DNA of 64,000 bases from an uncultured bacterium (GCA_963727715.1 CAVSGX010000006.1:12632-76631); one strand, 5' to 3'; shown: positions 1-64,000, counted from the first letter of the stretch. The notes: generated from the sequence alone by a model not told the origin. A program made the numbers and translations.

Positions 1-84
1 TTCTGCGAAAAATTTTTCAATAAAAATAGGGGACTTATCCCCTATTTCACTATGTCTCAAATTTTTAAAAACTAATTGGATATA

Positions 85-486: not shown

Positions 487-533
487 ATTTTTGTTTTTTA
501 GTTTGTAATAAACACTGGTTGATTATAGCACAT

Positions 534-1058: not shown

Positions 1059-1069
1059 ACAGTTCTAGA

Positions 1070-4767: not shown

Positions 4768-4769
4768 GT

Positions 4770-35483: not shown

Positions 35484-35512
35484 TTATAATAGTTTAACAA
35501 AGTCAAAACAAT

Positions 35513-35713: not shown

Positions 35714-35720
35714 AAAAACT

Positions 35721-36644: not shown

Positions 36645-36915
36645 AGATCAAATAAAAGAATGGCAGGAGCTTGGTATCGTTGATGGTAAATTTAAGGTAA
36701 AAGATGTAGAAGATAAAAAATATGAGCATTTACCGGTAGACACAAAGTATTTTAAGGATTTAGAAATTGAAATTTTGTCTTTGTTTGACGATTTAGACAA
36801 TCAGTTAGATGGCTGGCTGATAAAAAGCGAAAATTATCAGGCGTTAAATACAATACTGCCGAAATTTAAAGAACAAGTACAAACAATATACATTGATCCG
36901 CCATTCAATTCTTGA
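36631..36915 (+). pseudogene. Type III R-M methyltransferase (Mod) N-terminal fragment, truncated after motif IV
   Basis: GWLIKSENYQALNTILPKFKEQVQTIYIDPPFNS* is the beta-class N6-adenine MTase N-terminus ending at DPPF. Downstream 36916..37970 is stop-riddled, but a degenerate motif I can still be read out of frame (VMDYFCRFGALVWLSAHKMKMKWIGVE, compare D.F.GSGTT...GR.wIGiE). Confidence 0.7.
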
Positions 36916-37972
36916 GGGATAGATTTTTACTATGCAGATCAATTATCAAAATAGCTAGTTGGACTTTCGTTAATTGATAATAGACCGAAAATTATAAGCA
37001 GTTTTCGAGAAAAGACAATTAATACTTATATAGTTGCATTTTGATTCCGAAGGAGAGTTACGCATAATTGATAATTATATTCTACGGCTTTACTGATCTT
37101 GATTTCAAAGTCGCATAATTAAATATCAGTTAATGAGATAGTTTTTAAATAATTTATTAATAAGTATCATGGTTATTTATTTTCAGAAAGCGATGAAATA
37201 ATGTGGCATTATGAAAGTATTATGGTACTAGGTCGAAAGACTATTTAGAAAGCACAGATACAATCACGATTTTTTATAGAAATGATCGAAAGACATACTT
37301 TATTTAAAACGAAATGAAGATATTGGCGAAACAAATGCTGATAAGATTGGAGAAAGTATATTGTAAATGAAAACGAGTCGTGGGAAATTACATCATGATG
37401 TTGATTTAAAAGGAATTGGATAAATGGATGAAAGAAAATGGCAGATCAACCAATGAAGATAAGATGTTGATTTATGTATTTTAAATACGCAACCATACGA
37501 AGATGTATGGGATATACAATACATAAGATCACGCCAAAGATAAAACAGAAAAGACTGGATATGACACTGCAAAAGCCAGAAGCTCTTATTGAAAGGATAA
37601 TTCGATGCGGTTTCATAATCCAGGACGATTTAGTCATGGATTATTTTTGTAGGTTCGGAGCACTAGTGTGGCTGTCTGCCCATAAAATGAAAATGAAATG
37701 GATTGGCGTAGAGAATTAGGCGAAGCATATTATGAGACATATGACACGATTAAGGTATTTTTAAGAAAAAATAGAAAGACGATTGTTGAAATATTGGAAA
37801 TAGTTTAGAGTCAAACTATATTACCGCATGTAAGACTGGTAAAGTTGACGCTTGAAGAGATTGGTTAGTGGCTAAAAGTCTGGAATATCAGACAAGGTTG
37901 AATATGCTGGTGGCGGATTTTTCAAGTATTATGAGCTTGAACAGTATGAGGATGCATTAAAAAATTGTAAAT

Positions 37973-38266
37973 ATGGCGACGGGTGATTTATTTAGTAAGA
38001 CAAGCGATAAAGCATATCAGGATTATGTATTTATGAAAGATGAAAAAATGCTTTCCGCTTTGGAAATAGATTACAAGAATAAAAAAGTGAGGGTAGATTT
38101 AAACAAGCTTTATCCCGATATTGATATTGCGGAAACACTATCAAACCTAACCGGAAAATGGATTAAGGCAATAAAAGACGGTGATGTGGAATTTACCGAT
38201 GGTAGCAAGATAAATACGAAAGAATTGGACTATAAAATTATCAAACCTTTAATTTGGTGGGAATAA
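37973..38266 (+). pseudogene. probable C-terminal remnant of the decayed mod gene
   Basis: 97-aa ORF whose stop is 1 nt before the res start; the position fits a Mod C-terminus; no motif. Confidence 0.3.
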
Positions 38267-38267
38267 C

Positions 38268-41196
38268 ATGAAGACCTATTTGCAATCAATCGTTGATGAC
38301 TTTTCTTTTGATAACTTGCCGGCAAAATGGCAGGATTTTGATTTTGTCAGATTTTCTTCCGATAAAACACTATTTGATTTTCAAAAGCAAGGTTTGCAGA
38401 ACGCGCTGAAAGCACTTTGGTTGTTTTATAAAGAGAAAAAAAGCAATAAGGAAGATTTTTTTGAACAATATAAGGCCAATGGATTTGAAACTAATTTTGA
38501 TTATGATTTAAGTCGTGAAAGAAAATCTGCCGGTCATCTTTTGGAATTTGATAAGGATTATCCGATTACGAACGAAAAAATTGCTTTCGCTCACTTCATC
38601 AACCGAATGAGTTTCTGGATGGCAACTGGCTCTGGCAAAACTTTGATTATCGTAAAGTTGATTGATTTGCTCGGACAGCTTATTCAAAGAAAAGAAATAC
38701 CGAAAAACGACATTCTTTTTTTGGCTCATAGAGATGACCTTTTAGAGCAATTTAGAAATCATGTAAATGAGTTTAACAGTTATAATTTTGAAACGAAAAT
38801 AAATTTGAAAAGTTTAAAAGATTATGAAAGTGTTAAGCGAGAAAATTCTTTGCCATTTGCGAAAAATGAAATAACTGTTTTTTATTACCGTTCTGATTTA
38901 ATTTCCGATGAGCACAAGGAAAAAATAGTCAATTTTAAAAATTACGACAATAGCGGCAAGTGGTACATCCTTTTAGATGAAGCTCATAAGGGCGACAAAG
39001 AGGATAGCAAACGACAGGTACTATATTCAATACTTTCAAGAAACGGTTTTCTTTTTAATTTTTCTGCGACATTCACAGACCCACGAGATTATGCAACATG
39101 TGTTTTTAACTTCAATTTATCTAAATTTATTGAGGAAGGTTATGGAAAACATATTTATGTATTCAAACCAATGTGAAGGTTTTCGGGACAAAACGATTTT
39201 GCTCCACTGAAAAGCAGAAAATTGTTTTGAAAGACGCTTATTTTGCAAACATATATCAATAAATATTTTGCGAGAGTCAGAAAAGAAGATAAGACACTAT
39301 ACCATCGACCACTACTTTTGACGCTAGTCAATTCGGTTGATACAAAAGAAGCCGACTTAAAATTATTTTTTTCAGAGCTGGAAAAAGTGGCAAAAAATAA
39401 AATAAGCTCAGGAACTTCTTAAAAAAGCTAGAGAAGAAGTTGATAGAAGATTTTGAAAATAATCCCCAGTATGAATTTGAGAGTATTAATTTTTCAGTTG
39501 ATAAAAAGATAATTGAAAAGATAGAGTATGGTGATATTTTGAAGCAAATTTTTAATGCGAAATCTCCGGCAAAATCGAGGTTTTAAAGATTCCGGGCAAT
39601 AAAAAGGAGATAATTTTCAAATTGCAAAGATCAGAAAAACCTTTCGGACTTATTAAGATTGGTGATATTTCTGGCTGGTTCAAGGAAAAACTTGAAGGTT
39701 ATGAAATCATTGAAAGTTTTGAAAATGAAAGTATTTTTAAAAAAATCAATCACGACGATTCGGAAATAAATATTTTAATGGGTTCTCGTGCTTTTTATGA
39801 GGGGTGGGATTCTAATCGTCCGAACATTATTTTGTTTGTGAATATCGGCGTGGGAAGCGATGCTAAAAAGTTTGTTTTGCAGTCAGTTGGACAGAGGCGT
39901 AAGGATTGAACCGCAAAAAAACAAACGGAAAAGGATTTTGAATTTATACAATGCGAAAGAGATAAAAGAAGAAATATTTAATAAAGTACGACAAAATATT
40001 ATGCCACTTGAAAGTTTGTTTATTTTCGGGACCAATGCAGAAAACCTTAAAGAGATTATCAAAGCCCTTAAAGAAGAAAAACAAGAAAAGGATTTAGGAC
40101 AAGAGTTTATTATCAATAAAGAAGCTGAAAAGCGATTATTGCTAATTCCGATATATAAAAAATCGGACAAAATATTTGCGGAAGAAAAAGAACCTCAAAA
40201 ATATGGAATTAACAAAGATGATTTTGATTTGGCCAAGTGAAATGTTTAATTATCTTGGCACAAAAATCGCGTTAACGAAATATGAATGTGATGTCAGGGT
40301 TGTTGAGAAAGCAAGCGAAAGTTTTGAAAAGCCAGATCAATATTTTGACTTTGAAGAAGCGAGGACAATTTCTGAGCCGGATTTGTTAGTGGATAGAATC
40401 ATTAAATTATTTTAGCGTTAGAGATAAAGAATTTGATAAATTTAAAAAACTAGAAAATGAAATTGTCCATTTCAAGAGAATAAAATTTAGCGATGGCGAA
40501 AAATATGAGCAAATAAAGAAAAAAATTGAGGAAATGAGACAATATCCTGAAAAACAGAAAGAACTTGATAACAATATGGAAAAATGCCAAGAGAAGAATT
40601 TGCCCGAAAACAAATAGTTTATTTGAGGCGCAAAAATTTGAATATAAAGGGAAAAATTAAAAATAAAATATATTCAAAATCATTATTATATTCCGCTTAT
40701 CGTTTCTGAAAATGAAAAAGTTGATTATTTAAACCACATTATTGATGTTCCTAGCGAAGTTAAATTTATTGAACAGCTTGAGGAGTATTTACAAAATGAA
40801 AATAATGTTTTTAAACAATTTGATTGGTGGATGTTTTCCAAACTAGACCAAACATTAGACGAGGTACATATTCCGTATTACAATCCAAAAGAAAACAATA
40901 TGGCTAGGTTTAAGCCGGACTTTATTTTTTGGATGCAGAAAGGAAATGAGTATGTAATTTTGTTTGTAGATCCAAAAGGAACAGAACATGCAGACGGATA
41001 TAGGAAAATTGATGGCTATTCGCGCATATTTGAAACTAGAGAAAGAAAAGAAAGCAGAGCATATCCGTTCAACGGCTTTAATATAAAAACAAAATTACTT
41101 CTGAAGCCAAAAAGAGGAATAGCTGAAACACTTGAGAATTATCGAAAATATTGGTTTGACAATTTTGGCGATTTTGCGACAAAGTTAAATAATTGA
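38268..41196 (+). pseudogene. Type III restriction endonuclease (Res), fragmented
   Basis: 38268..39176 is intact for 302 aa with helicase motifs (Q-like LFDFQKQ, Walker A MATGSGKT, DEAH ILLDEAHKG, motif III FSATF). Later motifs follow in shifted frames (39622..39909 EGWDSNRPNIILFVN; 39860.. QSVG-RGVRI motif VI). A C-terminal PD-(D/E)xK nuclease remnant (FKPDFIFW...VILFVDPKG) lies at 40831..41196. Confidence 0.7.
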
Positions 41197-42411: not shown

Positions 42412-43014
42412 TTATTTTTTTCTATCATATCTGCCGATCAGCGTGGTTTGTGAAATGATATGCCCGGCCATTGCGTCCAGCACCTCTTTTTTTGTCGCGC
42501 CGGCTTGTAGAGGAGGCGTTGAATCCAGAGCGTACAAATAAAAAATATATCGGTGTTCCCTATCGGGCGGGCACGGAGGCATGTATTTTGTCGCGCCACT
42601 AGTTCCGCTTCCATAAACACCCTTTATAGTCTGTCCTTCTTTTATCTCGCTCTGGTCCGGAGGAATATTAAAAACAATCAAATGGTCCCATATGCCGTCT
42701 GGGCGGATATTTTTGGGGACATCAGGATCTTCCAAAATCAAAACCAATGATTTCGTCTCACTCGGCACATTAGAGATGGCAAGTGGCGGACTTATACTTT
42801 CCCCATCGCAAGTGTATTTTGACGGGATCATCCCACCATCTTCAAAAGCCAAACTTGTTAATTTCATATTTGTAATATTATTTTCGTTATTAAAAATTTC
42901 TCGCGAATTTTGAATTGCTATTCCATTTTTGTTCGGTACCACGGAATGCAGAATCAAAAAAATCAACACCAAAACCACAATTACCGCAAAAATCAGCAAA
43001 TACTTCATACACAA
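42412..43014 (-). CDS. YbhB/YbcL-family phosphatidylethanolamine-binding protein (PEBP)
   Basis: 200 aa; signal/TM N-terminus; SPPLAISNVP...LEDPDVP...HRYIFYLYALD PEBP signature. Confidence 0.7.
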   Translation of the reverse strand: MCMKYLLIFAVIVVLVLIFLILHSVVPNKNGIAIQNSREIFNNENNITNMKLTSLAFEDGGMIPSKYTCDGESISPPLAISNVPSETKSLVLILEDPDVPKNIRPDGIWDHLIVFNIPPDQSEIKEGQTIKGVYGSGTSGATKYMPPCPPDREHRYIFYLYALDSTPPLQAGATKKEVLDAMAGHIISQTTLIGRYDRKK

Positions 43015-43110
43015 ATTATATCAAATATTGTGTAAAACAACCCAAATCTCCCCTTCTGTATTTTTCCAGTATGTGCGATAATTTAATCATTAATAAACTA
43101 AAAATCACTT

Positions 43111-43518
43111 ATGTTAAAAGAATTCAAACAATTTTTGCTTCGCGGAAATGTTGTTGATTTGGCTGTTGGTGTCGTGGTCGGGGCTGCTTTTGGCACAGTT
43201 GTTACAGCGCTGGTGTCTGATCTACTCACTCCATTTATTGCCGCCATCGCCAAAGTCCCTGATTTTTCAGGATTGTATTTTGTCATCAACAATAGCAAAT
43301 TTATGTACGGCCACTTTATCAATGCTTTCATTTCATTTCTACTGGTATCGGTCGCGATATTTTTCTTTGTTATCAAACCGATGAATTTTTTGATTTCTCG
43401 TTCAAAAAAAGAATTGCCGGCAGATCCAACCACCAAAAAATGTCCGGAATGTTTAAGCGAAATTCCTATTGAAGCCAAGCGCTGTTCTCACTGCACTCAA
43501 ATTGTAATTTCCAAATAA
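43111..43518 (+). CDS. mscL: large-conductance mechanosensitive channel MscL with C-terminal zinc-ribbon tail
   Basis: MLKEFKQFLLRGNVVDLAVGVVVGAAFG plus TM2 are canonical MscL; C-terminus KKCPECLSEIPIEAKRCSHC replaces the usual C-terminal helix. Confidence 0.8.
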   Translation: MLKEFKQFLLRGNVVDLAVGVVVGAAFGTVVTALVSDLLTPFIAAIAKVPDFSGLYFVINNSKFMYGHFINAFISFLLVSVAIFFFVIKPMNFLISRSKKELPADPTTKKCPECLSEIPIEAKRCSHCTQIVISK

Positions 43519-43863
43519 TCGTTTATTATTTGACTTTTGTCAAAAGAACTGGTATTTTTAATAGTGGAGATTTAATATGTCTTGCAGAAAAAGGTAATTA
43601 AGACTATGTTATGAAATTTTAAAAAATTTTGGAAGATTTTTTACTTCTAGTTTTTGGAAAGGAGTTTTTAAAAATGATTTTTGGTTTGGTACCAGAACTA
43701 CCCTTATCATTTTGCGAGCATTTGTCGTGGTAGGAATTCGAGATATAATCTCAATAATTCTTATTCCCGGATATCCTCCAAAACCAGATAAAGCTGAAGT
43801 AAATGAAATCGTGACACATTTTCATAATGATTGAACGGGTAGTGATTCTACTCGTCTTTCTTT

Positions 43864-44136
43864 TTATAAAAAGGGTATCCAAGAAAAATCTTCTCTGTTG
43901 TATTCTGATGAATGTTCTTTCAGAATGGAAACAGCCTTTTCTCCGTTGATATATCCCAGCACATCATTTGTTCCGGGGTTAACAATAGTAAAACCGCTTT
44001 CAGGGAAGTGGTTGGTACTTTTCTCACCATTTTTCCAGACTACAGGGACCAGATAATAACCATTTTCAATTTTGATGTCTCCTCGTCCATTTCCCTCTTT
44101 TGAACCTTTACCGTTTGAAATTTTTTCGAAAGTCAT
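43864..44136 (-). CDS. hypothetical small protein
   Basis: 90-aa ORF, Gly/Asn-rich, no recognisable motif. Confidence 0.3.
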   Translation of the reverse strand: MTFEKISNGKGSKEGNGRGDIKIENGYYLVPVVWKNGEKSTNHFPESGFTIVNPGTNDVLGYINGEKAVSILKEHSSEYNREDFSWIPFL

Positions 44137-44215
44137 ACTGGTATCCTAACAAATAAATACAAAAAAACATAATTTCAAAAATGCGGATGATGTGTTCTTG
44201 TGCTAGAATTTCCGT

Positions 44216-45478
44216 ATGGCTCATCACAAATATTTTTTTGATTATGCTTCCACTACTCCGCTTGATCCGAAAGTTCTTTCGGCTATGCTCCCATATTTCA
44301 ATGAAAAATTCGGCAACCCCTCCAATCTTTATAAATTTGGTCGTGAGGCCAATCGAGCTGTGGCAGAAGCGACAAAAACTATTTCTGGTGTTTTGAATTG
44401 CCGGCCGGATGAATTCATCTACACCGGCTCGGCCACTGAGGCCGATAACTTGGCCATTCTTGGCGTGGCTCGGGCAAATAAAAACAAAGGCCGGCGGGTT
44501 ATCGTTTCGCAAGTGGAACACAAAGGAATTCTAGCCATGTCTGAAATTTTGAAAAAGGAAGGATTTGAAGTTGTGGAGTTGCCGGTAGGCAGTGACGGAC
44601 TCGTCAAAATTTCCAATCTGTTAAAACTTTTGATCCCGGAGACAATTTTAATTTCCGTCACTTCAGCCGACAGCGAAACAGGCACTCTTCAGCCGATTGA
44701 CGAGATTGCCGAAATTATTAAAAGATTTCGTCAAAAAAATAAATCCACACTCCCATATTTTCACACCGATGCCAGCCAAGCCGCGACTTATCTTGATCTG
44801 GATACAGAGAAACTTGGCGTGGATATGATGACCATTTCGGCGCATAAAATTTACGGGCCAAAAGGTGTCGGCGGACTTTATGTGCGTCGTGGAGTCAACA
44901 TCCAGCCGATTATTTATGGAGGAAGTGGAGGTCTGCGAAGCGGTACCGAAAATGTACCGGGCATTGTCGGTTTGGCTGAGGCTTTGCAAATGAACAAGAA
45001 AAATAAAAAAACGGAAAACGCGCGAATAAAAAAACTACGCGACATTCTGGAAAAAGGAATTTTCAAGTCAGTTCCAAAAGTGGTGTTAAATGGTCACAAA
45101 ACAAAACGTCTGCCGAATTTTCTGAACATTTCCATTTTGGATGTTGAAGGCGAGGCGATGCTTCTCATGCTAGATGAGCTTGGTATAATGGTTGGCACGG
45201 GCTCGGCTTGCAATTCGCTTTCGCTTGAGCCGTCGTATGTTTTGACCGCGCTAGGTAATCCATATGAATTTGTCCACGGCAGTTTGAGATTTACCCTAGG
45301 CCATGGCAATACAATGTCCGATATTAAATATGTTTTAAAACACCTGCCGATTATTGTTAAAAAATTGCGGGCCATCTCGCCACTTGATCTGTCGCTTCAG
45401 CAAAAGAAAAAAATTTCTGATCCGCGGGCTTTTGTCGGAAATCAAACGCCACATTTTTTAAGAAATAAAAAGAAATGA
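44216..45478 (+). CDS. cysteine desulfurase (NifS/IscS, class V aminotransferase)
   Basis: 420 aa; FDYASTTPLDPKVLSAMLPY..., PLP-lysine region ISAHKIYGPKGVG, active-site loop SGSACNS. Confidence 0.85.
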   Translation: MAHHKYFFDYASTTPLDPKVLSAMLPYFNEKFGNPSNLYKFGREANRAVAEATKTISGVLNCRPDEFIYTGSATEADNLAILGVARANKNKGRRVIVSQVEHKGILAMSEILKKEGFEVVELPVGSDGLVKISNLLKLLIPETILISVTSADSETGTLQPIDEIAEIIKRFRQKNKSTLPYFHTDASQAATYLDLDTEKLGVDMMTISAHKIYGPKGVGGLYVRRGVNIQPIIYGGSGGLRSGTENVPGIVGLAEALQMNKKNKKTENARIKKLRDILEKGIFKSVPKVVLNGHKTKRLPNFLNISILDVEGEAMLLMLDELGIMVGTGSACNSLSLEPSYVLTALGNPYEFVHGSLRFTLGHGNTMSDIKYVLKHLPIIVKKLRAISPLDLSLQQKKKISDPRAFVGNQTPHFLRNKKK

Positions 45479-46146
45479 AAAAAAAGATTACAAAAAAATC
45501 AAAACCCGATGTGGTCAACAAACACACAGGCGACTCATGGGCTTACACGAAAGAAGTACGAGAGCATTTTTTCAAGCCGAAAAATCTGCTTTGGCAGAAA
45601 CCAAGCGAGGCAAAATACGATGCCGAGGGCATTGTCGGTTCGCCGGCTTGCGGAGATGTTATGCGGGTTTGGCTCAATATCAATCCAAAAAAAGACACAA
45701 TCACCGAATTTAAATGGCGGACATTCGGTTGCGCTTCAGCCATCGCTTCCACCTCAATTCTTTCTGTCATGGTCACGGAAAAAGGTGGAATGAAAATCAA
45801 CAAAGCTTTGCAGATTCGCCCGCAGGATATTTTGAAACGGCTCGGCGGACTGCCGGACAGAAAAATCCACTGCTCGGTTCTCGGCGACAAAGCTTTGCGA
45901 GCGGCGCTGAATGATTGGTTCAAGAAAACGGGACAATTCTCGCGGATTGTCATTGATGGCCGACAAATTATTGATCCGAACACAAAAGTGACCGAAGCGG
46001 ATATTGAAGAAGCGGTGTTGGAAGGGGCCACTACTCTTCTTGCCGTGCAAAAGCGTACCAAGGTCGGCATTGGCTACCCTGAATGTTTGCCGAAAGTGGA
46101 AGAGCTCATCCGTTTTTATCGCGAAAAATATTTTGGCAAAGAATGA
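45475..46146 (+). CDS. Fe-S cluster assembly scaffold, NifU/IscU type
   Basis: 223 aa; IscU-like N-domain with the three scaffold Cys (GSPACGDVMRV, FGCASAIASTS); extra C-terminal domain. Confidence 0.75.
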   Translation: MKKKITKKSKPDVVNKHTGDSWAYTKEVREHFFKPKNLLWQKPSEAKYDAEGIVGSPACGDVMRVWLNINPKKDTITEFKWRTFGCASAIASTSILSVMVTEKGGMKINKALQIRPQDILKRLGGLPDRKIHCSVLGDKALRAALNDWFKKTGQFSRIVIDGRQIIDPNTKVTEADIEEAVLEGATTLLAVQKRTKVGIGYPECLPKVEELIRFYREKYFGKE

Positions 46147-46388
46147 AAAAAAATAATTCAAAAAAAATAGAAAAGCAGATAGAAAAAATAATCGCCAAAG
46201 TCCGTCCGTATGTGCAAATGCACGGTGGTGATGTTTTTTTGCTTGATGTCAGTGACAATGTAGTGACACTTCAGGTCGTCGGTGCCTGCAAAGATTGCTC
46301 TTTGTCCGATTTGACATATAATAAGATGTTGGGGGGAATCATCAGAGATGAAATTCCGGAGATTAAAGAAATAATAATTAAAAAATAA
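46143..46388 (+). CDS. Nfu/NifU C-terminal-domain protein
   Basis: about 82 aa from the internal Met (ATGA overlap with the upstream stop); CxxC motif VVGACKDCSL of Nfu-type carriers. Confidence 0.65.
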   Translation: MKKNNSKKIEKQIEKIIAKVRPYVQMHGGDVFLLDVSDNVVTLQVVGACKDCSLSDLTYNKMLGGIIRDEIPEIKEIIIKK

Positions 46389-46402
46389 TAGGCTAAAACA
46401 TT

Positions 46403-46693
46403 TTGATTACAAAATGTTCGCCCGAGAAAAATATGACAAATACAAAAGAATACGTTCGTAGCAAAGAAGGTTCAAATATCGGCAAAATTGTTATTGATCG
46501 CGATCTTTGTATCGGAGCGGCCAGTTGTGTAGCTGTTTCTGGCGTGACATACGAGCTGGACGGCGAAACCAAAGCGGTCGTTTTGGATGCAAACACCGTT
46601 GATGACGAAACACTGATAATGTCAGCTGAATCCTGCCCAACTAAAGCTATAATTTTATTTGACAAAGAAGGCAAGCAAATTTTTCCAAAATAG
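46403..46693 (+). CDS. small [Fe-S] ferredoxin
   Basis: 96 aa; IVIDRDLCIGAASCVAV...SAESCPTKAI, single-cluster ferredoxin pattern. Confidence 0.65.
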   Translation: MITKCSPEKNMTNTKEYVRSKEGSNIGKIVIDRDLCIGAASCVAVSGVTYELDGETKAVVLDANTVDDETLIMSAESCPTKAIILFDKEGKQIFPK

Positions 46694-46698
46694 TTTTC

Positions 46699-47964
46699 AT
46701 GCAATCTTACAAATATCTAATCATCGGTGGTGGCGCGGCTGGGACTTCGGCGGCCGAAACAATACGACAAAAGGATGTCGATGGGACTATTGCCATTGTC
46801 AGCGATGAGGTTCACCCGCTTTACTCGCGGGTTATGCTTTCCAAACCGAATTTTTTTCTGGGCAAAATTCCTTTTGATCAGATTTGGATGAAAGGGCTGG
46901 ATTGGTATGACAAAAATAAAATAATTTTTATCGGTGGCAAAACAGCGACCACTCTTGACGCGGAGAAAAAAATTATCACTTTGGATAGTGGCGAGCAAAT
47001 TTCCTACGAAAAACTTTTGTTGGCCACGGGGGTCCGTCCTCGCTTGTGGACTGTGTCCGGCAAAGACAAAAAGGGCGTTTATTATTTGCGGACACTTGAG
47101 GACGGCAAGACAATAATGGAAGCTATAAAAACAGCAAAAAAAGCAGTGACCATCGGTGGTGGGTTCATTGGTTTTGAAATGGCCGACCTAATGCAGTTGG
47201 CCGGTTTGGATACCACTATGATTTTGCGCGAGGATTATTTCTGGCAACCGACTCTGGACGAAGCATCCGGCAAAATGATTGAAGATGCTCTGACAAAATC
47301 CGGAGTAAAAATTTTGAAAAATGCCGAAGTGGCAGAAGTGCTTGGCGATGAAAATGTTAAAGCTGTGGCACTCAAAGACGGTACGAAAATAAACTGCGAA
47401 ATGATAATTTGTGGCATCGGCATTGTTCCGCCTGCTCTTGATTGGCTGAAATCGGCCGGTCTTGGTGTTGGTAACGGTATTTTGGCTGATGAATTTTTAC
47501 AAACGAATTTGTCCGATGTTTGGACAGCCGGCGACATCGCCGAGTACAAAGATTTGCTTTTGGAAGAAAAAATCCAGCTCGGCAACTGGGTCAACGCTCA
47601 CGAGCAAGGTCGCGTGGCAGGGCTCAATATGGTCGCTTCGGCAAATGTTTCCGGCGCGGAGAAAACCGCTTTTCGTTTTGTTTCTTTTTACACCACTGCC
47701 GGCGCCGGCATCAGTATCGCTTTTGTTGGCGACACTCGTCCCCTGCCGGATCGTGTCATAATAAAACGCGGTTCGCCGGAGATAAATTCATACGCGCGAA
47801 TTTTAATTGATGAAAAAAATGAACTTGTCGGCGCCACGATGATAAACCGCATCGCCGAGATGTCCACCATTTCCAAACTAATTGAAAACAATATAGATGT
47901 CTCTTCTCATCACCCTGACCTGGCCAACCCAAATTTTGATTTGAAAAAATTGTTGGCAAAGTAA
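46699..47964 (+). CDS. FAD-dependent pyridine nucleotide-disulfide oxidoreductase (ferredoxin/rubredoxin reductase-like)
   Basis: 421 aa; N-terminal FAD Rossmann IIGGGAAGTSAAE, second GxGxxG VTIGGGFIGFEMA, TAGDIAE FAD motif; adjacent to the ferredoxin gene. Confidence 0.8.
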   Translation: MQSYKYLIIGGGAAGTSAAETIRQKDVDGTIAIVSDEVHPLYSRVMLSKPNFFLGKIPFDQIWMKGLDWYDKNKIIFIGGKTATTLDAEKKIITLDSGEQISYEKLLLATGVRPRLWTVSGKDKKGVYYLRTLEDGKTIMEAIKTAKKAVTIGGGFIGFEMADLMQLAGLDTTMILREDYFWQPTLDEASGKMIEDALTKSGVKILKNAEVAEVLGDENVKAVALKDGTKINCEMIICGIGIVPPALDWLKSAGLGVGNGILADEFLQTNLSDVWTAGDIAEYKDLLLEEKIQLGNWVNAHEQGRVAGLNMVASANVSGAEKTAFRFVSFYTTAGAGISIAFVGDTRPLPDRVIIKRGSPEINSYARILIDEKNELVGATMINRIAEMSTISKLIENNIDVSSHHPDLANPNFDLKKLLAK

Positions 47965-47972
47965 TTTTTTAT

Positions 47973-48009
47973 AAAAAAAACCCGTGTGATTGGTCACGGG
48001 TGGTGTTTT
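47973..48009. terminator. bidirectional intrinsic terminator
   Basis: aaaaaaaa-cccgtg-tgattggt-cacggg-tggtgtttt between convergent genes. Confidence 0.55.
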
Positions 48010-48010
48010 C

Positions 48011-48457
48011 CTATCTATTCACCAGAACTTCGTACATCTCTTTGATTGGACGAGGAGGATAACAATAATGGCAATTGTCATCATTGAAAATCATATAGAC
48101 CCCGAAACTCATTTCAAATCTGAGTTGACGCACGTTGAACTTCATTCGTTCGACAGGTATTCTGTCAACAAAAATTTTTCCGTCTCTTTTGGAGATTTCT
48201 ATTCTTCTGACACCAGTGCTTGAAAGATCCGCTCCAGTGACAAACACCAAATCTTCACCGGACAAACTTTTGTCTTCTAGAAAAGAACTTATGCATCCAA
48301 TCTTTTCATCTGGGATTTCAATTTCCAACCCACAATTTCTCAACTCATCGAAAATGCTAAAATTGGCGTCAATTTGATGACGTGACAATTGGCCTAAAAA
48401 ATTTCTCAATTCTGTCAATTGAAAAGCATTGAATACCTGTCCAACTGTCAGTTTCAT
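48011..48457 (-). CDS. hypothetical protein
   Basis: 148-aa ORF, no recognisable motif. Confidence 0.35.
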   Translation of the reverse strand: MKLTVGQVFNAFQLTELRNFLGQLSRHQIDANFSIFDELRNCGLEIEIPDEKIGCISSFLEDKSLSGEDLVFVTGADLSSTGVRRIEISKRDGKIFVDRIPVERMKFNVRQLRFEMSFGVYMIFNDDNCHYCYPPRPIKEMYEVLVNR

Positions 48458-48479
48458 TGGATTGTCTCCGTATACTATA

Positions 48480-50522
48480 CTACATAGAAATCGTAATATG
48501 TAAAGTGCTACCTATCATCATTCTGGCATCTATCACGGTCGCGCTAAGATCGGTGGCCATAACTGGGTTGAGGTCAATCTCTTTTATTTCAGGATGATGA
48601 ATGGCCAGTTCCGAAAGATTTACAATAATTTCGGCGAGCAAATCAAAATCAACCGACTTCTCGCCACGCAAACCTCGCAAAATTTCAATACCCTTTATTT
48701 CACTCATCATTTCCAAAGCTTCTTCTTTTTTGATCGGGGCGACACGCAGTGAAGTGTCTTTGATAGCTTCGGCTAAAATTCCACCGAGACCGAAAAGAAT
48801 TGTTGGGCCGAAAGTCTCGTCGCGCTTCATACCGATAATGACTTCCCTGCCGGAAACCATCGGTTGAATAAGCATACCGTCGATATGAACCCTCGGATTG
48901 TTGTGGCGAATAGTGTCCCAAGCTTTCTCGGCATCGTTTATTGTTTTTAAGTTTAAAATTATGGCGCCGGAATCTGTTTTGTGAACAATGCACGGCGACT
49001 CGGCTTTCATGGCAAAGTTTGTAAATTTCAACTTTTTCAAGATAGGCCCAAGCTCAAATTTTTCTTTAACCAAAATTCCGCTAAGCGGGATATTGTATTC
49101 GGCCAACAAGTCAAAAGTATTTTCAAAGTTCATCATTTTGATTTTTTGGTTAGCGTTTTTTACAAACTCCTGGTGGTTTTTGTGAAGACCGAAAGCCAGT
49201 GAGTCTAAGGCCGAAATGGCGTCTTCAGGAAAACTGAAATTAACCATTTTATTTTGTCGCAAAATTTTCAGGGCCGGGTCAATTTGCGATCCACCAAGAA
49301 AAACCGGAATAATCGGTTTCTTGTCGTGATACTTTTGAACCAACTCGGCTGTTTTTTCCGTCTCGGTCATCATTTGAGGCGTAACTAAAAGCAAAATAGC
49401 GTCGCTGTTTTTTTCTTCCGACAAAATTTCCAAAGCTTTTTCGAACCTGTCGGCTAAAGCGTCGCCGATAATATCCACAGGGTTTCCTACCGCGGCCATT
49501 GGGGGCAAAACCGCTCGCAATTTTTCTTTTGTTTTTTCTGGAATATTGGCCAATGAAAGAGAATATGATGTGTCCACTAAATCAGCCACTATCACTGATG
49601 GTCCGCCACCATTTGTCAAAATACAGATTTTTTGCAGTGGTTTGTAAAGGCCTGTTTGAAAAAGTTTGGCCATATCGAAAAACTCATGAATAGAATTTAC
49701 ACAAATGACCCCGGCTTGTTTGCAAGCCGACGAGAAAACAGCGTCGTCCGGGGCCAAAGAACCGGTGTGAGACGAGACGGCTTTAGCTCCACCGACGCTT
49801 CGGCCGGCTTTGAGGACGATGATCGGTTTTGTTTCAGTTATTTTTTTAGCTAATTCTATAAAAGCTGGTCCATCGGAAAGTTTTTCCAAATAAATCAAGA
49901 TGGATTTCGTTTCCTGATCTTCTGCCAGAAATCTCAGAAAATCAATTTCCGTCAAATTGGCTTCATTACCCAAACTTATGAATTTGGAAAAACCGACATT
50001 TTCGGAAAGAGCCATGTCCAAAAGGGCGGCGCCTAAAGCGCCCGACTGTGACAGAAAAGCGATGCTCCCCGTCGGAGGATTATCGGGAGCAAATGTGCAA
50101 TTAAAGTTTTCCTGCGTGGAGATTGTGCCTAGACAATTTGGTCCAAGTAGATTGATTCCATTTTGTTTGGCGATTTCAGCTATTTTTTTCTCAAGTTCTT
50201 CGCCGGACGGACCGATTTCTTTAAAACCGGCAGAGATGACAATGACATTTTTAATTTTCTTTTCGGCGCATTCTGACATAATTTTCGGCACCAAATTGGA
50301 ACGAACGGCGATGATAGCCAGATCAACCGGCCCCTTGATGTCTAGAACAGATAAACAAGCAGCAACACCCAAAATTTTTTTCTCGGAAATGCTGACGGGG
50401 AAAACAACCCGTTTGCTTCCGCCTAGCAGGTTTTTCATCAGAGCGAATCCAACTTTGCTTTCGTCGCTTGAAGCGCCGATCACAGCTACTGATTTTGGAT
50501 TGAAAAAATTTTCAAGATTCAT
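48480..50522 (-). CDS. acetyl-CoA synthetase (ADP-forming), fused alpha/beta (NDP-forming acyl-CoA synthetase)
   Basis: 680 aa; CoA-binding N-domain (VAVIGAS...), succinyl-CoA-synthetase-like ligase domains and C-terminal ATP-grasp domain. Confidence 0.8.
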   Translation of the reverse strand: MNLENFFNPKSVAVIGASSDESKVGFALMKNLLGGSKRVVFPVSISEKKILGVAACLSVLDIKGPVDLAIIAVRSNLVPKIMSECAEKKIKNVIVISAGFKEIGPSGEELEKKIAEIAKQNGINLLGPNCLGTISTQENFNCTFAPDNPPTGSIAFLSQSGALGAALLDMALSENVGFSKFISLGNEANLTEIDFLRFLAEDQETKSILIYLEKLSDGPAFIELAKKITETKPIIVLKAGRSVGGAKAVSSHTGSLAPDDAVFSSACKQAGVICVNSIHEFFDMAKLFQTGLYKPLQKICILTNGGGPSVIVADLVDTSYSLSLANIPEKTKEKLRAVLPPMAAVGNPVDIIGDALADRFEKALEILSEEKNSDAILLLVTPQMMTETEKTAELVQKYHDKKPIIPVFLGGSQIDPALKILRQNKMVNFSFPEDAISALDSLAFGLHKNHQEFVKNANQKIKMMNFENTFDLLAEYNIPLSGILVKEKFELGPILKKLKFTNFAMKAESPCIVHKTDSGAIILNLKTINDAEKAWDTIRHNNPRVHIDGMLIQPMVSGREVIIGMKRDETFGPTILFGLGGILAEAIKDTSLRVAPIKKEEALEMMSEIKGIEILRGLRGEKSVDFDLLAEIIVNLSELAIHHPEIKEIDLNPVMATDLSATVIDARMMIGSTLHITISM

Positions 50523-57832: not shown

Positions 57833-58196
57833 ACAAAATCTCTGTGATTTTTTGCGAGGCTTCAGACTCCCCCATCTCTGGTGGGAGACCAATGATTTTT
57901 ACAGATTTTATTTTGCCGAGCTTCCACAGGTAGCGTAGGTTGGTTAGTGCGTCAAAGTCGTGCATACCGACTCGCGGTGGCGCGGAGAATTTTTCCAGAT
58001 TGTCAAAAACAGTCACATCTTTGATGCCGACAGCTGTGTCTATAATCATTATATTTTCTGGCACATCCCAGTCTTCATTCGGGTCCACAACAACAAATTC
58101 AATGTCAGGAAATTTTTCCGAAAGTTTTGGCAAAATCCTCAGAGGAAGAGAATCTATTTGCAAGTCTTCATTTCCAAATATAAATATTTTTTGCAT
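57831..58196 (-). CDS. hydrogenase maturation endopeptidase (HybD/HycI family)
   Basis: 121 aa; aligns with HybD: IFIFGNEDLQIDSLPLRI (compare ILVLGVGNILLTDEAIGVRI), MIIDTAV (compare IIADAI), GMHDFDALTNLRYL (compare SPHQLGLADVLSAL); the Glu/Asp/His nickel ligand positions are conserved. Confidence 0.6.
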   Translation of the reverse strand: MQKIFIFGNEDLQIDSLPLRILPKLSEKFPDIEFVVVDPNEDWDVPENIMIIDTAVGIKDVTVFDNLEKFSAPPRVGMHDFDALTNLRYLWKLGKIKSVKIIGLPPEMGESEASQKITEIL

Positions 58197-58379
58197 AAAT
58201 TTAAAGTATTATGACTTCCAAAATTTTCTCGGAATATTTTGGGAACCTGTTATATCGTCTGATTTGCAAAAGCGATGCTTTGCAAAATATATTTGCGCAA
58301 ATTTTTTGCTTGTGCTTCACTGATAATTTCACACGGTACCGACCAGTGAAAAGAGACAAGCTGTCCCGGTCTGATTTGT

Positions 58380-59033
58380 TCAATGTCGTACTCCACCTCC
58401 AACCGCCTGACGATTTTTTTCTCCGCCGGCTGGGCCAAAAAAAAGTTTGCCGTTGGTGTATGACAAACTTTCGGTCAAAACAGTGATTTCCGGCCCGCTG
58501 ACTCGCAGAACCTTGCCGAAGTTGACCAAGCATTCATCCATTCTTTCTACTTCATCCAGTTTGTCATTGTGTCCAGACATTTGCCAGATATTGAGCACAT
58601 GAAATGAATGATGAGGCACGGCGCCTTGCCGGATTTTTTCTTCCAACCATTCAAATTCTTTCGGTTTGATTTTTTTCTTGACTCCGAGATCATCGGTCAA
58701 AAATCTGTAAAATCTTTCCAGCTTGTTAGTTTCCAATAACTTATTGCCGAGCCAATAGGCCTCAACTACCCGTTCGTCAAATGGTTCGGCGATTCCATTT
58801 GTTCTGGAAATATATTGCAAGTATGGATAGAGAGTCTTGAATTGTTTAAGCAAAATAGAAATTTCCGGATTTTGCTCACCGTGTTCAATCAAACTTTTTA
58901 ATTCTCTGCTCTGATCGGGTCCACAATAATGCAGACGATTCGGACCGAAAGAATATCGGCTACAACGCACAATACCATCCATAATCTCTTTTTGGCTAAT
59001 CATATCTTTCTGAAATATGGATTTTTTAAACAT
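58380..59033 (-). CDS. hypothetical protein, possibly truncated by a homopolymer frameshift
   Basis: 217-aa ORF; a 62-aa continuation (58250..58438) exists in another frame across A8/T8 runs at 58415..58446. Confidence 0.35.
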   Translation of the reverse strand: MFKKSIFQKDMISQKEIMDGIVRCSRYSFGPNRLHYCGPDQSRELKSLIEHGEQNPEISILLKQFKTLYPYLQYISRTNGIAEPFDERVVEAYWLGNKLLETNKLERFYRFLTDDLGVKKKIKPKEFEWLEEKIRQGAVPHHSFHVLNIWQMSGHNDKLDEVERMDECLVNFGKVLRVSGPEITVLTESLSYTNGKLFFGPAGGEKNRQAVGGGVRH

Positions 59034-59434
59034 TAAATTTTTAATACTCCACTATCGATTTCGTTGTAAACCATTGATGAAATATCACTGATGATTTTGG
59101 AAAGTTTAGCGAAATCCTGGCCCTTAGTCATAATACAAAGAAGATATGGATTTCTCGGGTAATAAATGATGCCACAGTCATGCAGTTCGCGGTAGTCAAC
59201 AGTCGTCATTCCTGTCGTGGTGTTTTTTGTTTCCACTGTTCGCTCGCCGAATTTGTTAGAACTTGGAATATCAGGTGGCAAACCAGCCTCGATTCCTTCC
59301 GGAAAATAAGATTCACTCAAAAGCTGAAGTGCATATTGCGACATGGGTTTGGAGAGGTATGTGGCGTTGTATAGAATCCTGAAAATATAAGAATGAATGT
59401 ATGTGCTGCCTCCATCGGTCGAGAAGGGCCACAA
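59033..59434 (-). pseudogene. C-terminal half of a class-A beta-lactamase-like serine hydrolase, N-terminus replaced at the compositional junction
   Basis: TKNTTTG...HDCGIIYYPRNPYLLCIMTKG parallels the KTG...RGIIAAL...IVVIYTTGS region of class A enzymes; the SxxK and SDN parts are absent; upstream DNA switches to high GC. Confidence 0.5.
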
Positions 59435-59439
59435 GTTGG

Positions 59440-59846
59440 TAATTGATAGCGGATGTATCGCTGGTCGCTGTCCATGTCACAGTATGCGTGCTGCCGGCGC
59501 TCCAGTTTTCACCGCCATTAGGAGAAGTCACCGCCAGCGTCGGAACGGGTTCCAGATAGAGGTCCACCGAATAGCCGGAATAGCCATTGTCCCAGTTGAT
59601 ATACCACCATGTGTACGTGCCATCGTAATAGGAGCTCGAGGCCATGGTGCCTCTCGATCCTTCTGTCTCAGTTGTAACGACTGTTCCGCTGGTACTGTGA
59701 GTCGCGTGAACGACAAGATTGGCAGTGGTTTGTACGCGGCTTCCATTGGAGAATGAATAGGCTCCTGCTTGCAAGATGCTTGCTAAGAAGAGCACGACGG
59801 AGCAAACGAGAATTTGAACACTTTGCTTGATTTTCATGGTTATCAT
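59440..59846 (-). CDS. GC-rich secreted protein fragment (Ser/Thr-rich Kre9/KNH-like domain), C-terminally truncated at the junction
   Basis: signal peptide MKIKQSVQILVCSVVLFLASILQAGA; domain VTSPNGGENWSAGSTHTVTWTATSD; the reading frame turns to nonsense where low-GC DNA begins (~59435). Confidence 0.45.
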
Positions 59847-60435
59847 TTTTCTCTTCCTTCTTTGCGCTCTTGGCCGTTGAAACGGTAGGGGCGTGACCTA
59901 CTCACGCTCCACTACAGGCACTGGCGTGCCCTCAACGGAACGTTTTCAGGCACGCCCGTTCTGGGCGTGCCTCGAATGTGTCCGTTGAGAGAAAGTGCCA
60001 GTTTCGTAGTGGACAGCAGCCGAAGCCGCAAATCTGTTGTTGGTAATATTTTACATTGGTTTTCTTTGCGAACGCTCAAAATTTGTCTTCATTGTTGATG
60101 GTTGGCGTACCGTTCTTCAAAATCGCAATGGTGCGGCGGCGGATGCTGCGTGAAAAACAATGCCTCTTGATTGGTACGTTTGGGGAAATGACCCGCCATG
60201 GAAATCGCCGTCACCGGATACAATCCTTGCCCCAGCTTTGCAACCTCAGCTTCATCGAACCGACCTGCCTGAAAGTCTGTGCCCATCCCAAATTCCGGCT
60301 GTTTTGTTAATTCACCAGCGCCAAAGAACCTGTGTCAGAGGAACAATACGCCGATTCCGAATAATAAATCTTGAGGGAATTCATGTATTCTGTCTCACCA
60401 TATTTTGCTAAATACTCACCGTGGGTTGCAGGACG

Positions 60436-60768
60436 GATTTAGGGAACCCCTGCCCATGAGCCAGTGAGGAACCTGCTCTCCCGGCCCTCCCTCTACAAGC
60501 GTGTGGAGGGGAGGGAGTTTAGGGAACCCCTGCCCATGAGCCAGTGGGGGGCCTCCTCTCCCGCGGCCCTCCCCTCCACAAGTTGTGGAGCGGAGGGAGT
60601 TTGGCGAACCCCTTCCCATGAACCAGTGGGGAACCTCCTCTCCCCGCCCCTCCCCTCCACAAGTGTGTTGAGAGGGGAGGGAGTTTGGGAACCCCCGGCC
60701 ATGAACCGGTGAGGAACCTTCTCTCCCCCGGCCCTCCCCTCCACAAGTGTGTGGAGGGGAGGGAGCAG
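60436..60768. repeat. tandem array, about 4.3 copies of a ~78-bp unit with embedded hairpin
   Basis: unit gggagtttagggaacccctgcccatgagccagtg.ggaacct.ctctccc.gccctcccctccacaagtgtgtggaggggag; units are about 80-90% identical; each holds the palindrome ctcccctccacaag(t)gtgtggaggggag. Confidence 0.8.
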
Positions 60769-60798
60769 AGGAACGCGAAGAATTTTGTCGTGCGCCCG

Positions 60799-61822
60799 TC
60801 ATCGTGTTTTAATCGCGTTAAGTTGCGGGGGCGGGTTTCCAGGCGTCGGCTTCGAGTTCGAAGAGGAGGTCGTCGCGGCAGATGCCGCAGCGGGCGGAGA
60901 CGGCGGGAAGGGAACGGAGGTCGCGGGCGGCACACCAGGCGGGGAATTCGGACTGGCCGGCGGGGTCCTTGAAGTAGGCGGTTGCGCGGGTGATGTCGGC
61001 AAAATCAAAGCCGCGGAGGCGAGGATGACTTCAATGACTTCCATTGTAGTCTGGATTTGCCGGCTCAGGTTGCCGAGCCATAGTGTCTGGCCCCCGGGCG
61101 CAACGCTGGCGGTGCCGGAGATCAAGAGGCGGCGGCCATGCAGGGAGGAGATTTCCATGGCGCGGCTGAAGGAGCTGCCGTAGGCGGTGGCCGGACATTG
61201 CAAGGGGGAGTGGACTTGGGCGATCTGCACGGTGGAGTTGAGGGGTTGAAGCGCCCAAGCGCCGGCGACCAGGGCGGCGCCGGCAGGGTTCTTTGCTGAA
61301 ATGCCGGTGCTGGCGGGCAGGGAGCCGCCGCGGAATTTGACGCGGGAGTAGGCCTCGGTTCTGGCCTGGTTGAAGGGGCCGTACGAAGAGAGGAGGTCGT
61401 CGAGGTAAAAACCAGGTGCGCACGACGTCGCCGAGGGAGAAGTTGGCTCGGGCGAGGGCTGTTTCCAAGTTGGCCAGGGTTTGGCGGAATTGGTCGGGGC
61501 GGGAGGCGGACCCAGGCTGCGGCCCCAAGCCGCCGAGCAGGCAATATCGAATGGCGCCGTCTTCAAAGACGGAACCGACAACGCGGCCGTTGAGGGTGAC
61601 GGGGTGAACGCGGCCGGCGGTGAAAGCGAAGGCCTGCAATCCGGCGATTGGCTCGTTGTTGCAGGCCGCGCCTTCGACCCAGGTGACTGGCCAGTCAATT
61701 TTTCCGAAGACCCGGCGCATGGCATCTTCGGCGGCCGGCCAGGCGCTGAGTGAACCGAAGGCCATCAATTTGACGAGCGTCGAGGAGGAGTCTTTCAAGG
61801 CGAGGGCGAGCCGGCTGAACAT
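60799..61822 (-). pseudogene. tandem RidA (YjgF/UK114) domain protein split across three frames
   Basis: RidA domain 1: DQFRQTLANLETALARANFSLGDVVRTWFL, continuing in another frame as FYLDDLLSSYGPFNQARTEAYS...PAGAALVAGAWAL. RidA domain 2: HGRRLLISGTASVAPGGQTLWLGNLSRQIQTTMEVIEVILASAA, continuing in a third frame as GDITRATAYFKDPAGQSEFPAWCAARDL... Frame switches fall at short homopolymers (~61395, ~60995). Confidence 0.55.
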
Positions 61823-62021
61823 TTGGATAATCCCTTCGCCAGGCAGGGGCTTGACTGTGAAACAGAATTCCGAGCCGCGGGACAGATTGCCGACGGCGGT
61901 TTTTGGACCTGTGATGGAAGCAGGCTTGAGGGATGGGATAATAAGAACGACGGTGGCCTAGACGGCGGCTGTCCGGGAGCGGTTACGAGGGGCGGCGGGT
62001 GCGCGCAGAAGTTGCGCAGGG

Positions 62022-62092
62022 TTGGAGTGGTGGAGTGGTGGAGTGGTGGAGTGGTGGAGTGGTGGAGTGATGGAGTGATGGAGTGGTGGGTG
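62022..62092. repeat. tandem decamer repeat (ggagtggtgg, about 7 copies)
   Basis: read directly in sequence; produces spurious VVEWW-repeat ORFs on both strands. Confidence 0.85.
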
Positions 62093-62615
62093 GCTGGACT
62101 TGACCATCTGCCCATTACTCCAATGCTCCAACACTCCGTTGGGTTTCTGCCGGGAATGGCTTTGCGCGTCATAGAAAAATCATTTGTTGGCTTGATTTAC
62201 CTTGATTTGGCTTGATTTTCAGCCTTCACAGGCTCTGGTTTTTGGGGTGATTTTGAGGGGATCGCGGCGGCTCCCGGAAGAAAGCAGCCTCAAAGAGCGT
62301 TCGGCGGGACGCCGACGGCGGTGATCGGGACGGTCGCGCTCCCAATCCCCAAGCCCCAATCCCCAATGTGCAATGCGCAAACGGTAATGCGGAATGGCGG
62401 GGAAATCCGGCCTTTGAGCCGTTGGCATCCGATATATTGCCTCCTTTCATCACGGGTGAAATAATAGCGGGCAAGCTGGAGTTGTCAACGGGGAAATGAA
62501 AAATATTTTGGGGTGATGATGATAAGGTACTGGCATAGGCAGCGCACAGGGTGGAGAGGTGGGATAATGGGCGGCGCGGCAGCACCGCCCTGCCTGGATT
62601 GCCATATTCGGCATA

Positions 62616-64000
62616 TCAGCCTTTGGATGGCGCGGTCGGCAGGCGGAGGGTGAAGGTGGCGCCGGCGCCGGGCAGGCTGGCGGCTTCGAGGGTGCCGCCG
62701 TGCGCCTCGACAATGGCCTTGGAAATAGCCAGGCCCAGGCCGGTGTGGCCGCCGGTGCCGGAGCGGGCTTTGTCGGCGCGGTAGAATCGCTCGAAGATGC
62801 GGGGCAAGTCCTCTGGGTCAATTCCCGGGCCGGTGTCGCTGACGCTCAAGAAGAGCCCCGTCTCGTTTGCCGCCGGTGATGCGGACCTCGCCGGATTCGC
62901 GGTTGTATTCGATGGCGTTGCTGAGGAGGTTGGTGATGACCTGCCCATGCGTTCGGGGTCGCCGACGCATGGCAAGGGCGGGAGTGCGGAAAGGACTTTC
63001 AGGCGGCGCGCTTCGGCGAGCGGGGCCATCAATTGTTCGCAGTCGCTGACGGTTTGGGACAAGTCGAAGGGGACGCGTTTGAGGGATTCCTGGCCGGCGT
63101 CGAGCCTGGCGAGTTCGAGGAGGGATTCTGTGAGCTTGCGCATTCGTTGTGCAGCGCGGAGGCATGTTTCGACGGTGGCGCGATATTCCGCGGCGCCGCG
63201 CTCGCGGTTGAGGATGGTCTGAGTCTGGGCGAGCATGACGGTGATGGGAGTGCGCAATTCGTGGGCGGCGTCGGAAGTGAATTGTTGTTGCTGTGCGAAG
63301 GCGGCTTCAAGGCGGGCGAAGGTGGAATTAAGAACGGCCGCCAGACGGCCCAGTTCGCTGTCGGTGTCGGCGGCGCTGATGCGCTGGGAAAGGTCGCCGG
63401 CGGCGATTTTGACGGCGGTGGAGCTGATGCCTTCGATGGGCCGGATGGCGCGGGAGGCCACACCACCAACCGCCGGTCAAGCCGAGCAACAGGACGATGC
63501 CGCCGGCGCCGGCCAGTTCCCACGCCAGGAGGCGCAGGCCGGCGAGTTCCTCTGCAAGGGAGCGACCGAGCAGGACGACGCCCCTGCCCGGCGTGGCGCG
63601 GGCAAGTTCGCGGAAGACGCCGCGCATTTGGGGTTCTGGCGGCGGTTGGGCGGCTCCGGCGGCAGCGGCAGCGGCGGCGGCGGCGGCGGGTCCGGCGGTT
63701 GCGGCGGCGACAGCGGCTTTGGTTGCGGCGGCGACAGCGGCGGCTCCGGCGGCGGCGGCGGCGGCAGGATAGGGCACATCGCGCGGCGCGGCTTCGGAGC
63801 GGGCCACTTCCTTGCCGTCCGCAAAGACCACATAGTAAAAAGAATTGGTCTCGCTGCCGAACAGGCCCATCTGGTCAGGTGCGAGATAGAATAGAAATCC
63901 CGGGGTGGGCTGGCCAGGAAATCCCCACTCTCCCGGCGTACCGCCATTGGTAAAATCAGCGCCCCAGATCACCACCACCGCCCCAACCGCCCCAATCACC
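62616..64000 (-). CDS. sensor histidine kinase (partial, continues past the window end; one internal frameshift)
   Basis: HAMP (GDLSQRI...ELGRLA), HisKA H-box AAHELRTPITV, HATPase_c (DTGPGIDPEDLPRIFERFYRAD...GLGLAISKAIVEAHGG) in 62616..63461. The N-terminal sensor part with a poly-Ala/GCG-repeat tract continues in a different frame (63328..63999), switching near 63465. Confidence 0.65.

Follow-up and report, generated by a model that had tools for sequence, protein, structure and literature searches.

The DNA analyzed here is a window of 64,000 nucleotides (nt) taken from a contig of an uncultured bacterium (GCA_963727715.1, CAVSGX010000006.1:12632-76631), deposited at NCBI and ENA with a length of 83,751 bp, of which approximately 19.75 kb lie outside the window; all coordinates below are positions in the window. 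Most of the window carries genes of a member of the Patescibacteria, or Candidate Phyla Radiation (CPR), up to the 3' part of a beta-lactamase-like gene, at which point the sequence changes abruptly into a GC-rich tail encoding a secreted protein, a RidA/YjgF-family protein and a histidine kinase. Our analysis indicates that this terminal segment of ~4.6 kb is very probably unrelated Verrucomicrobiota-like DNA that was fused to the CPR contig by an assembly error. The features surrounding the join are listed below, where L070 is a CPR contig from the independent Logan assembly of run ERR11594402, L023 a metagenome contig from the Joint Genome Institute (JGI) and L026 a locus from a Verrucomicrobial relative.

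58,437-58,444, plus strand: A8 homopolymer splitting the DUF6390 gene (A7 in Logan; the relatives are single open reading frames (ORFs) and the alignment with L070 has a gap)
59,033-59,398, minus strand: 3' remnant of a Beta-lactamase2 (beta-lactamase-like) gene, C-terminal ~121 amino acids (aa) (Pfam and comparison with L070)
59,395-59,399, no strand: putative chimeric breakpoint (three-way comparison of the window, L070 as native CPR sequence and L026 as Verrucomicrobial relative)
59,399-59,846, minus strand: 5' part of a secreted-protein gene, covering the signal peptide, an N-terminal domain and the first part of a Big_7/Kre9-like Ig domain (homologues and Pfam)
60,184-60,423, minus strand: conserved 245-nt stretch with a small ORF (80% DNA identity to L023 4506-4749)
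60,431-60,765, no strand: 82-nt hairpin-containing repeat in 4.1 tandem copies (Tandem Repeats Finder)
60,824-61,942, minus strand: RidA/YjgF-family two-domain gene (Ribonuc_L-PSP; Pfam and comparison with protein P0001)
62,616-64,000, minus strand: histidine kinase gene (HAMP, HisKA, HATPase_c) whose 5' end lies beyond the window (Pfam and the intact 413-aa kinase of L023)

The GC content amounts to 40.8% at 1-59,397, 50.2% at 59,398-60,420 and 64.1% at 60,421-64,000, the rise thus occurring in two steps, and the whole tail, from the break to 64,000, averages 61.0%. A preliminary description of this DNA had announced a sharp break near 59,400, where both the composition and the taxonomic affinity do change, together with a tail of 65-70% GC, a figure that our measurements lower. 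The tetranucleotide comparison suggested in that description clearly separates the two sides, the tail being unlike the CPR segments (correlations of -0.15 to 0.16) and like Verrucomicrobial loci (0.80-0.93), while the CPR segments correlate with one another at 0.92. The tail was found to share no sequence with the remainder of the window.

The break and the native CPR path

The identity of the CPR side to L070 stops exactly at 59,398 and the Verrucomicrobial homology to L026 extends down to ~59,399, so that the join is essentially blunt, with a possible microhomology of at most 2-3 nt. No run of N is present at this point, and inspection by eye revealed no adapter-like insert. The preliminary description had set the join at ~59,435; its actual position is 59,395-59,399, and the frame change seen at ~59,430 corresponds to a +1 indel within the secreted-protein gene.

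Both boundary genes are cut in the middle of a domain. On the CPR side, the Pfam Beta-lactamase2 match of the minus-strand ORF at 59,033-59,434 spans only profile positions 142-214 of 214; the native gene, intact in L070, encodes 327 aa, and the window copy is devoid of the N-terminal ~206 aa. On the GC-rich side, the Big_7 match of the secreted protein covers profile positions 1-43 of 70 only, and its homologues P0122-P0124, which are 81-84% identical, run for at least 45 aa past the point where the window copy is cut. The truncation of both genes that had been described beforehand is hence supported by Pfam, by the homologues and by L070, but the accompanying statement that they lie in different frames does not hold: where the join actually lies, the remnants of both genes share one frame, by chance, and a minus-strand ORF at 59,313-59,846 runs without a stop from the GC-side gene into the AT-side sequence.

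The junction appears to be unique to a single contig. The chimeric ORF (P0121) and the only tail ORF recorded (P0246) occur solely on the 83,751-bp NCBI/ENA contig and never in Logan, the other tail ORFs tried, including the kinase ORF truncated at 63,999, were not found in the protein collection, and the 40-mer spanning the junction was not found in the JGI metagenome contigs.

The decisive comparison is with the independent Logan assembly of run ERR11594402, which offers a direct view of the CPR chromosome at this site. Some of the CPR proteins of the window are present there residue for residue, and over the 15,169 nt compared with the window only 3 mismatches and 1 indel were counted, distributed over three contigs as follows.

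Window 1-6,613: L069 (8,785 bp), 100% identity, no differences
Window 42,716-49,989: L071 (7,274 bp), 2 mismatches, no gaps
Window 58,117-59,398: L070 (ERR11594402_1482772, 6,165 bp), 1 mismatch (59,395, C vs T) and 1 gap (A8 vs A7 at 58,437)

Such agreement indicates that the Logan assembly holds the same CPR population as the window. Beyond 59,398, L070 continues for 4,884 nt at 39.8% GC, a continuation with the missing part of the 327-aa Beta-lactamase2 protein and with genes for a PG_binding_1 protein, DUF4446, IF-2 and RbfA. Because L070 matches the window up to 59,398 and then carries CPR genes, the CPR chromosome is evidently uninterrupted through the breakpoint in this population. The earlier warning that the tail is unfit to serve as native context was justified; in Logan, CPR sequence takes the place of the tail.

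These observations bear directly on the idea that, in a minority CPR subpopulation, the beta-lactamase-like gene was very recently the target of an integration of Verrucomicrobial DNA. The site would then remain intact in the majority, and the poor consensus would be due to the variant being of low abundance. In favor of this idea, the tail is real genomic DNA of another organism, with its native synteny preserved. However, the site is uninterrupted in the independent assembly, the junction is restricted to one contig, both genes are cut mid-domain and the composition of the tail has not shifted toward that of CPR (tetranucleotide correlation of about 0). Moreover, the join displays no tRNA, no target duplication and no flanking repeats, no integrase or transposase domain was detected among the tail ORFs scanned with Pfam, and CPR sequence is not resumed by position 64,000, within the window. 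We consider such an integration very unlikely, and the corresponding event, in which 4.6 kb or more of Verrucomicrobial chromosome would very recently have entered a CPR genome by real illegitimate integration, in a small fraction of cells, a little less likely again; if true, an ultra-small epibiotic bacterium would have been caught in the act of taking up DNA from another phylum.

Gene content and affiliation of the two sides

The closest relatives of the DUF6390 protein encoded just left of the break (58,380-59,033) are 57-64% identical and originate from metagenome-assembled genomes (MAGs) of Paceibacteria, Vogelbacteria and Saccharibacteria. A scan of genome contigs revealed no conserved upstream gene among these relatives, all of which share at most 64% identity with it, and L028, which harbors the closest relative of the beta-lactamase-like protein, shows no synteny with the window. 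Elsewhere the window encodes intact long housekeeping proteins, namely DnaK, asparagine synthase, AlaRS, PriA, an ADP-forming acyl-CoA synthetase, POR and a NiFe hydrogenase. Judged by its genes and relatives, the left side can be assigned with confidence to a Patescibacteria chromosome.

The tail retains the organization of another genome. In L023 the order is histidine kinase, Band_7, RidA-like gene and secreted protein, and the tail follows the same order with kinase, RidA-like gene, conserved 245 nt and signal-peptide protein, the kinase and RidA-like genes aligning at 85-87% DNA identity. Once reconstructed, the RidA-like protein is 84% identical to P0001, encoded by L023, over 100% of its length, and its named relatives include one Verrucomicrobiota MAG. 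Over 59,840-59,412, the secreted-protein gene shares 83% DNA identity with L026. Relatives located on longer contigs are adjacent to genes with PSCyt2, PSD1 and DUF1501 domains, three families typical of the Planctomycetes-Verrucomicrobia group. Taken with the tetranucleotide profile, these affinities point firmly to a Verrucomicrobiota-like bacterium as the origin of the tail.

The tandem 82-nt unit at 60,431-60,765 belongs to the same side. Its hairpin core (CCTCCCCTCCACAAG-N-GTGTGGAGGGGAGG) was found on 40 JGI metagenome loci (L029-L068) of 53-66% GC, mostly as single copies, the JGI copies of the unit measuring 75-89 nt with 85-96% identity. In the window the repeat is confined to the tail, and L023 lacks it at the orthologous position. 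The unit is best described as a dispersed repeat of the GC-side lineage, resembling repetitive extragenic palindromic (REP) sequences or miniature inverted-repeat transposable elements (MITEs).

The jump to 64% GC at ~60,420 was considered as a second junction, a candidate that was rejected since the 60,184-60,423 stretch and the secreted-protein gene are syntenic with L023; for the same reason the stretch of ~50% GC (59.4-60.4 kb) is native to the GC-side genome and does not constitute a third fragment. In L023 the conserved 245 nt lie directly downstream of the RidA-like gene. The differences between the small ORF of this stretch (MGTDFQAGRFDEAEVAKLGQGLYPVTA...) and L023 are mostly non-synonymous. 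The possibility of a structured RNA was also explored and found no support, the stretch having neither an Rfam match nor an excess of folding energy (z = +1.7).

Several individual features of the tail deserve mention on their own. The RidA-like gene of the window carries ATT at the position of the ATG start codon of its L023 orthologue. The Band_7 gene that L023 carries between the kinase and the RidA-like gene is missing from the window spacer at 61,960-62,616, within which lies a (TGGAGTGG)x9.5 microsatellite (62,023-62,098) with a sub-threshold and spurious Rfam match to mir-H1. At 63,640-63,765 the kinase gene contains ~111 nt of GCC-rich, Ala-coding repeat in the periplasmic region, of which the L023 orthologue is devoid. 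Finally, at L026 5,429-5,839, a DDE_3 transposase gene directly follows the closest homologue of the secreted protein (P0122), and the P0122 copy may be interrupted.

Frameshifts and uneven consensus quality

Indels in the tail genes were called against intact orthologues, and the tblastn alignments were examined for in-frame stops. Six positions were retained.

59,430: +1, at a short GG/CCC run, secreted-protein gene
61,411: +1, at a T5 run, RidA-like gene
61,016: -1, next to CC/GG, RidA-like gene
63,462: +1, at a TGG-TGG-TG repeat, kinase
62,946: -1, next to GGG, kinase
62,854: 2-nt gap, or equivalently +1, next to GGGG, kinase

Every alignable tail gene is frameshifted, with at least six short frame-shifting indels in ~2.8 kb of alignable coding sequence (~2 per kb), a density more than 50 times that of the CPR bulk. 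In the secreted protein, '...SAINYQLVA' is followed one base out of frame by 'FSTDGGSTY' where P0123 reads INYQLLEYSTDGGSTF, and the homologues P0122-P0124 read '...TWTATGDTSAINYQLLEYSTDGGSTF...' across the site of the frame change. The tblastn frames of the RidA-like gene are -1/-2/-1, that is, two frames and two shifts (61,411 and 61,016) in place of the three frames reported initially; the kinase, initially described as spread over two frames, comprises three shifts (63,462, 62,946 and 62,854), and its HATPase_c Pfam match begins at profile position 36. Shifts at short homopolymers had likewise been described, which is correct for 4-5 of the 6, as these adjoin runs of 2-5 nt, but not for the one at 63,462, located in the TGG-TGG-TG repeat.

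Frame disruption of this kind could in principle reflect an old, fixed foreign insertion decaying into pseudogenes, the alternative named in the preliminary description, and the fact that all alignable tail genes are affected would agree with it. In contrast, only short frame-shifting indels are present (+1, -1 and one 2-nt gap), the tail genes show no in-frame stop within their tblastn alignments, and no large deletion was observed within their alignable coding sequence. The composition of the tail has not drifted toward that of the CPR genome, and the same CPR population exists without the insertion in L070. A further argument against decay comes from the restriction-modification island of the same contig, where alternating frame changes point to uncorrected indel errors, as described hereafter. 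Decay is the least probable of the explanations weighed here, with a chance that we regard as close to negligible.

The frameshifting of tail genes that was first noticed is confirmed, but frame disruptions are not restricted to the tail and occur at two other places in the window. At the first place, the A8 run divides DUF6390 into ORFs 58,380-59,033 and 58,250-58,438, whereas its relatives are single ORFs and the corrected 260-aa protein is exactly present in Logan (P0402). We attribute this A8 to a consensus error of the deposited contig; it is the sole confirmed frameshift in the CPR bulk (~51 kb). Two other candidates in that bulk were dismissed. NifU (45,475-46,388) is not split by a homopolymer error at its A8 runs, as L071 in Logan has the identical two genes, and the overlap of MnmA and Mrr (23,064-23,134) involves two distinct genes instead of a frameshift. 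The native NifU arrangement consists of two overlapping genes, one encoding NifU_N + BFD (223 aa) and the other a separate C-terminal NifU domain.

The second place is an island at ~33.4-41.2 kb, with 31.6% GC, which is fragmented as much as the tail and whose components are as follows.

33,467-34,963, minus strand: large serine recombinase, split over three frames
35,498-35,710: helix-turn-helix (HTH) protein
35,700-41,193: Type III-like Mod/Res restriction-modification pair

The recombinase lies between copies of a repeat of ~150-200 nt, located near 33.45-33.6 kb and 35.0-35.2 kb. The Res gene (38,268-41,193), compared with its full-length homologues (960-1,025 aa), passes through frames 3/2/1/2/3/1, with at least 7-9 frame changes, approximately five of them alternating within 100 nt at ~39,150-39,250 in comparison with the 95%-identical P0263. 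All large genes of the island are broken up by frame changes, and none shows clear nonsense mutations. Dense alternating single-base indels without nonsense mutations have the appearance of sequencing error and not of evolutionary decay, and because the alternating frame changes of Res fit such an error, the contig evidently holds indels that were left uncorrected. The island is probably a strain-specific mobile element with a poor consensus.

The uneven consensus also bears on the recent integration discussed above, this time in its favor. The 33.4-41.2 kb island, poor in consensus, nonetheless seems to be a real accessory element of the CPR genome, and a poor consensus alone is thus not equivalent to a chimera; furthermore, the indel density in the tail is below the level of raw reads, which suggests that more than one read supports it.

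Origin of the join and comparison with known systems

A chimeric join best accounts for the whole of these observations because the composition and the closest relatives differ on the two sides, each side keeps its own native context, both boundary genes are cut mid-domain and an independent assembly follows an uninterrupted CPR path. A chimeric join had already been preferred to horizontal transfer in the preliminary description, and this preference is borne out by the native path in L070, by the Verrucomicrobial synteny, composition and repeat of the tail, by the absence of a mobile-element signature at the join, by the uniqueness of the junction and by the indel density. The discontinuity is present in the sequence, and in all likelihood it stems from an artefact of assembly and not from a biological event.

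Chimeric long reads, which are a recognized source of misassembly, can form by ligation of two molecules while a library is being prepared, or in silico if the two pass through one pore in quick succession (PMC7967992). The contig examined here would derive from a long-read or hybrid assembly, in which an excellent consensus would go with deep read support and a poor one with thin support. The tail would have been donated by a Verrucomicrobiota-like organism of low abundance in the same sample, and is probably the consensus of a few reads from this donor. The join itself could have been created by a chimeric read or by the false extension of a contig end, two possibilities that fit a blunt, adapter-free join at or near the end of well-supported CPR sequence. 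Both the tail and the 33-41 kb island would be thinly supported, and the single-base indels retained in them would yield the apparent frameshifts; for the tail, it is the more than 50-fold higher indel density that suggests such thin support.

The fault might also lie in another step of binning or scaffolding, for instance a wrong long-read link set between accurate contigs by a hybrid assembler, or a template-switch chimera formed during amplification. The patchy consensus, with a near-perfect bulk interspersed with raw-like island patches, would suit gap-filling by long reads, but the join has no run of N and no adapter, the microhomology does not exceed 2-3 nt, and this account departs from that of a chimeric read only in the pipeline step held responsible. 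We rate it as extremely unlikely, below either form of integration and above pseudogene decay.

Five points weigh against a chimeric join produced during assembly. Coverage, spanning reads and sequencing platform are inferred; the 83,751-bp contig may have been assembled from a run other than ERR11594402; the CPR sequence might resume within the 19.75 kb beyond the window; a rare real variant present in a minority of the cells would yield a sequence identical to that of a chimera; and the indel density of the tail (~2 per kb) is well below the error of raw long reads. As a consequence of this last point, the tail would be the consensus of several reads, or partly polished, and not one raw chimeric read.

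From a practical standpoint, a public contig of a Patescibacteria MAG, available from both NCBI and ENA, contains 4.6 kb or more of Verrucomicrobiota-like DNA, and recognizing this is of value for data hygiene. Left untrimmed, the tail is open to being misread as inter-phylum gene transfer, as CPR two-component signalling or RidA-family metabolism, or as pseudogene decay. We recommend cutting the contig at 59,398/59,399 and leaving the tail out of any account of CPR gene content; given the patchy consensus, equal caution applies to ORF-level conclusions in the 33.4-41.2 kb island.

Three known systems can be compared with the tail. Pseudogenised foreign DNA also displays several frame disruptions per gene, but the tail has only indels of 1-2 nt, mostly by short homopolymers, and neither nonsense mutations nor large intragenic deletions. 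Horizontally acquired genomic islands similarly form blocks of atypical GC with foreign genes in an otherwise uniform contig. Unlike them, the tail has a boundary without integrase, tRNA or direct repeats, is bordered by host DNA on one side within the window, keeps the synteny and the specific repeats of its donor, and corresponds to a site that is intact in the same population. The 33.4-41.2 kb segment of the same window illustrates the difference, as it possesses a serine recombinase and flanking repeats and is bordered by CPR sequence at each end, whereas the join of the tail has no integrase and no flanking repeats. Inter-genome chimeric MAG contigs differ from the present case in that the tail is of better than raw-read quality and that the evidence here is at the level of sequence, but they share with it the blunt join of unrelated genomes, the truncation of both boundary genes, the abrupt change in composition, taxonomy and consensus quality, and an independent assembly that stays on the native path.

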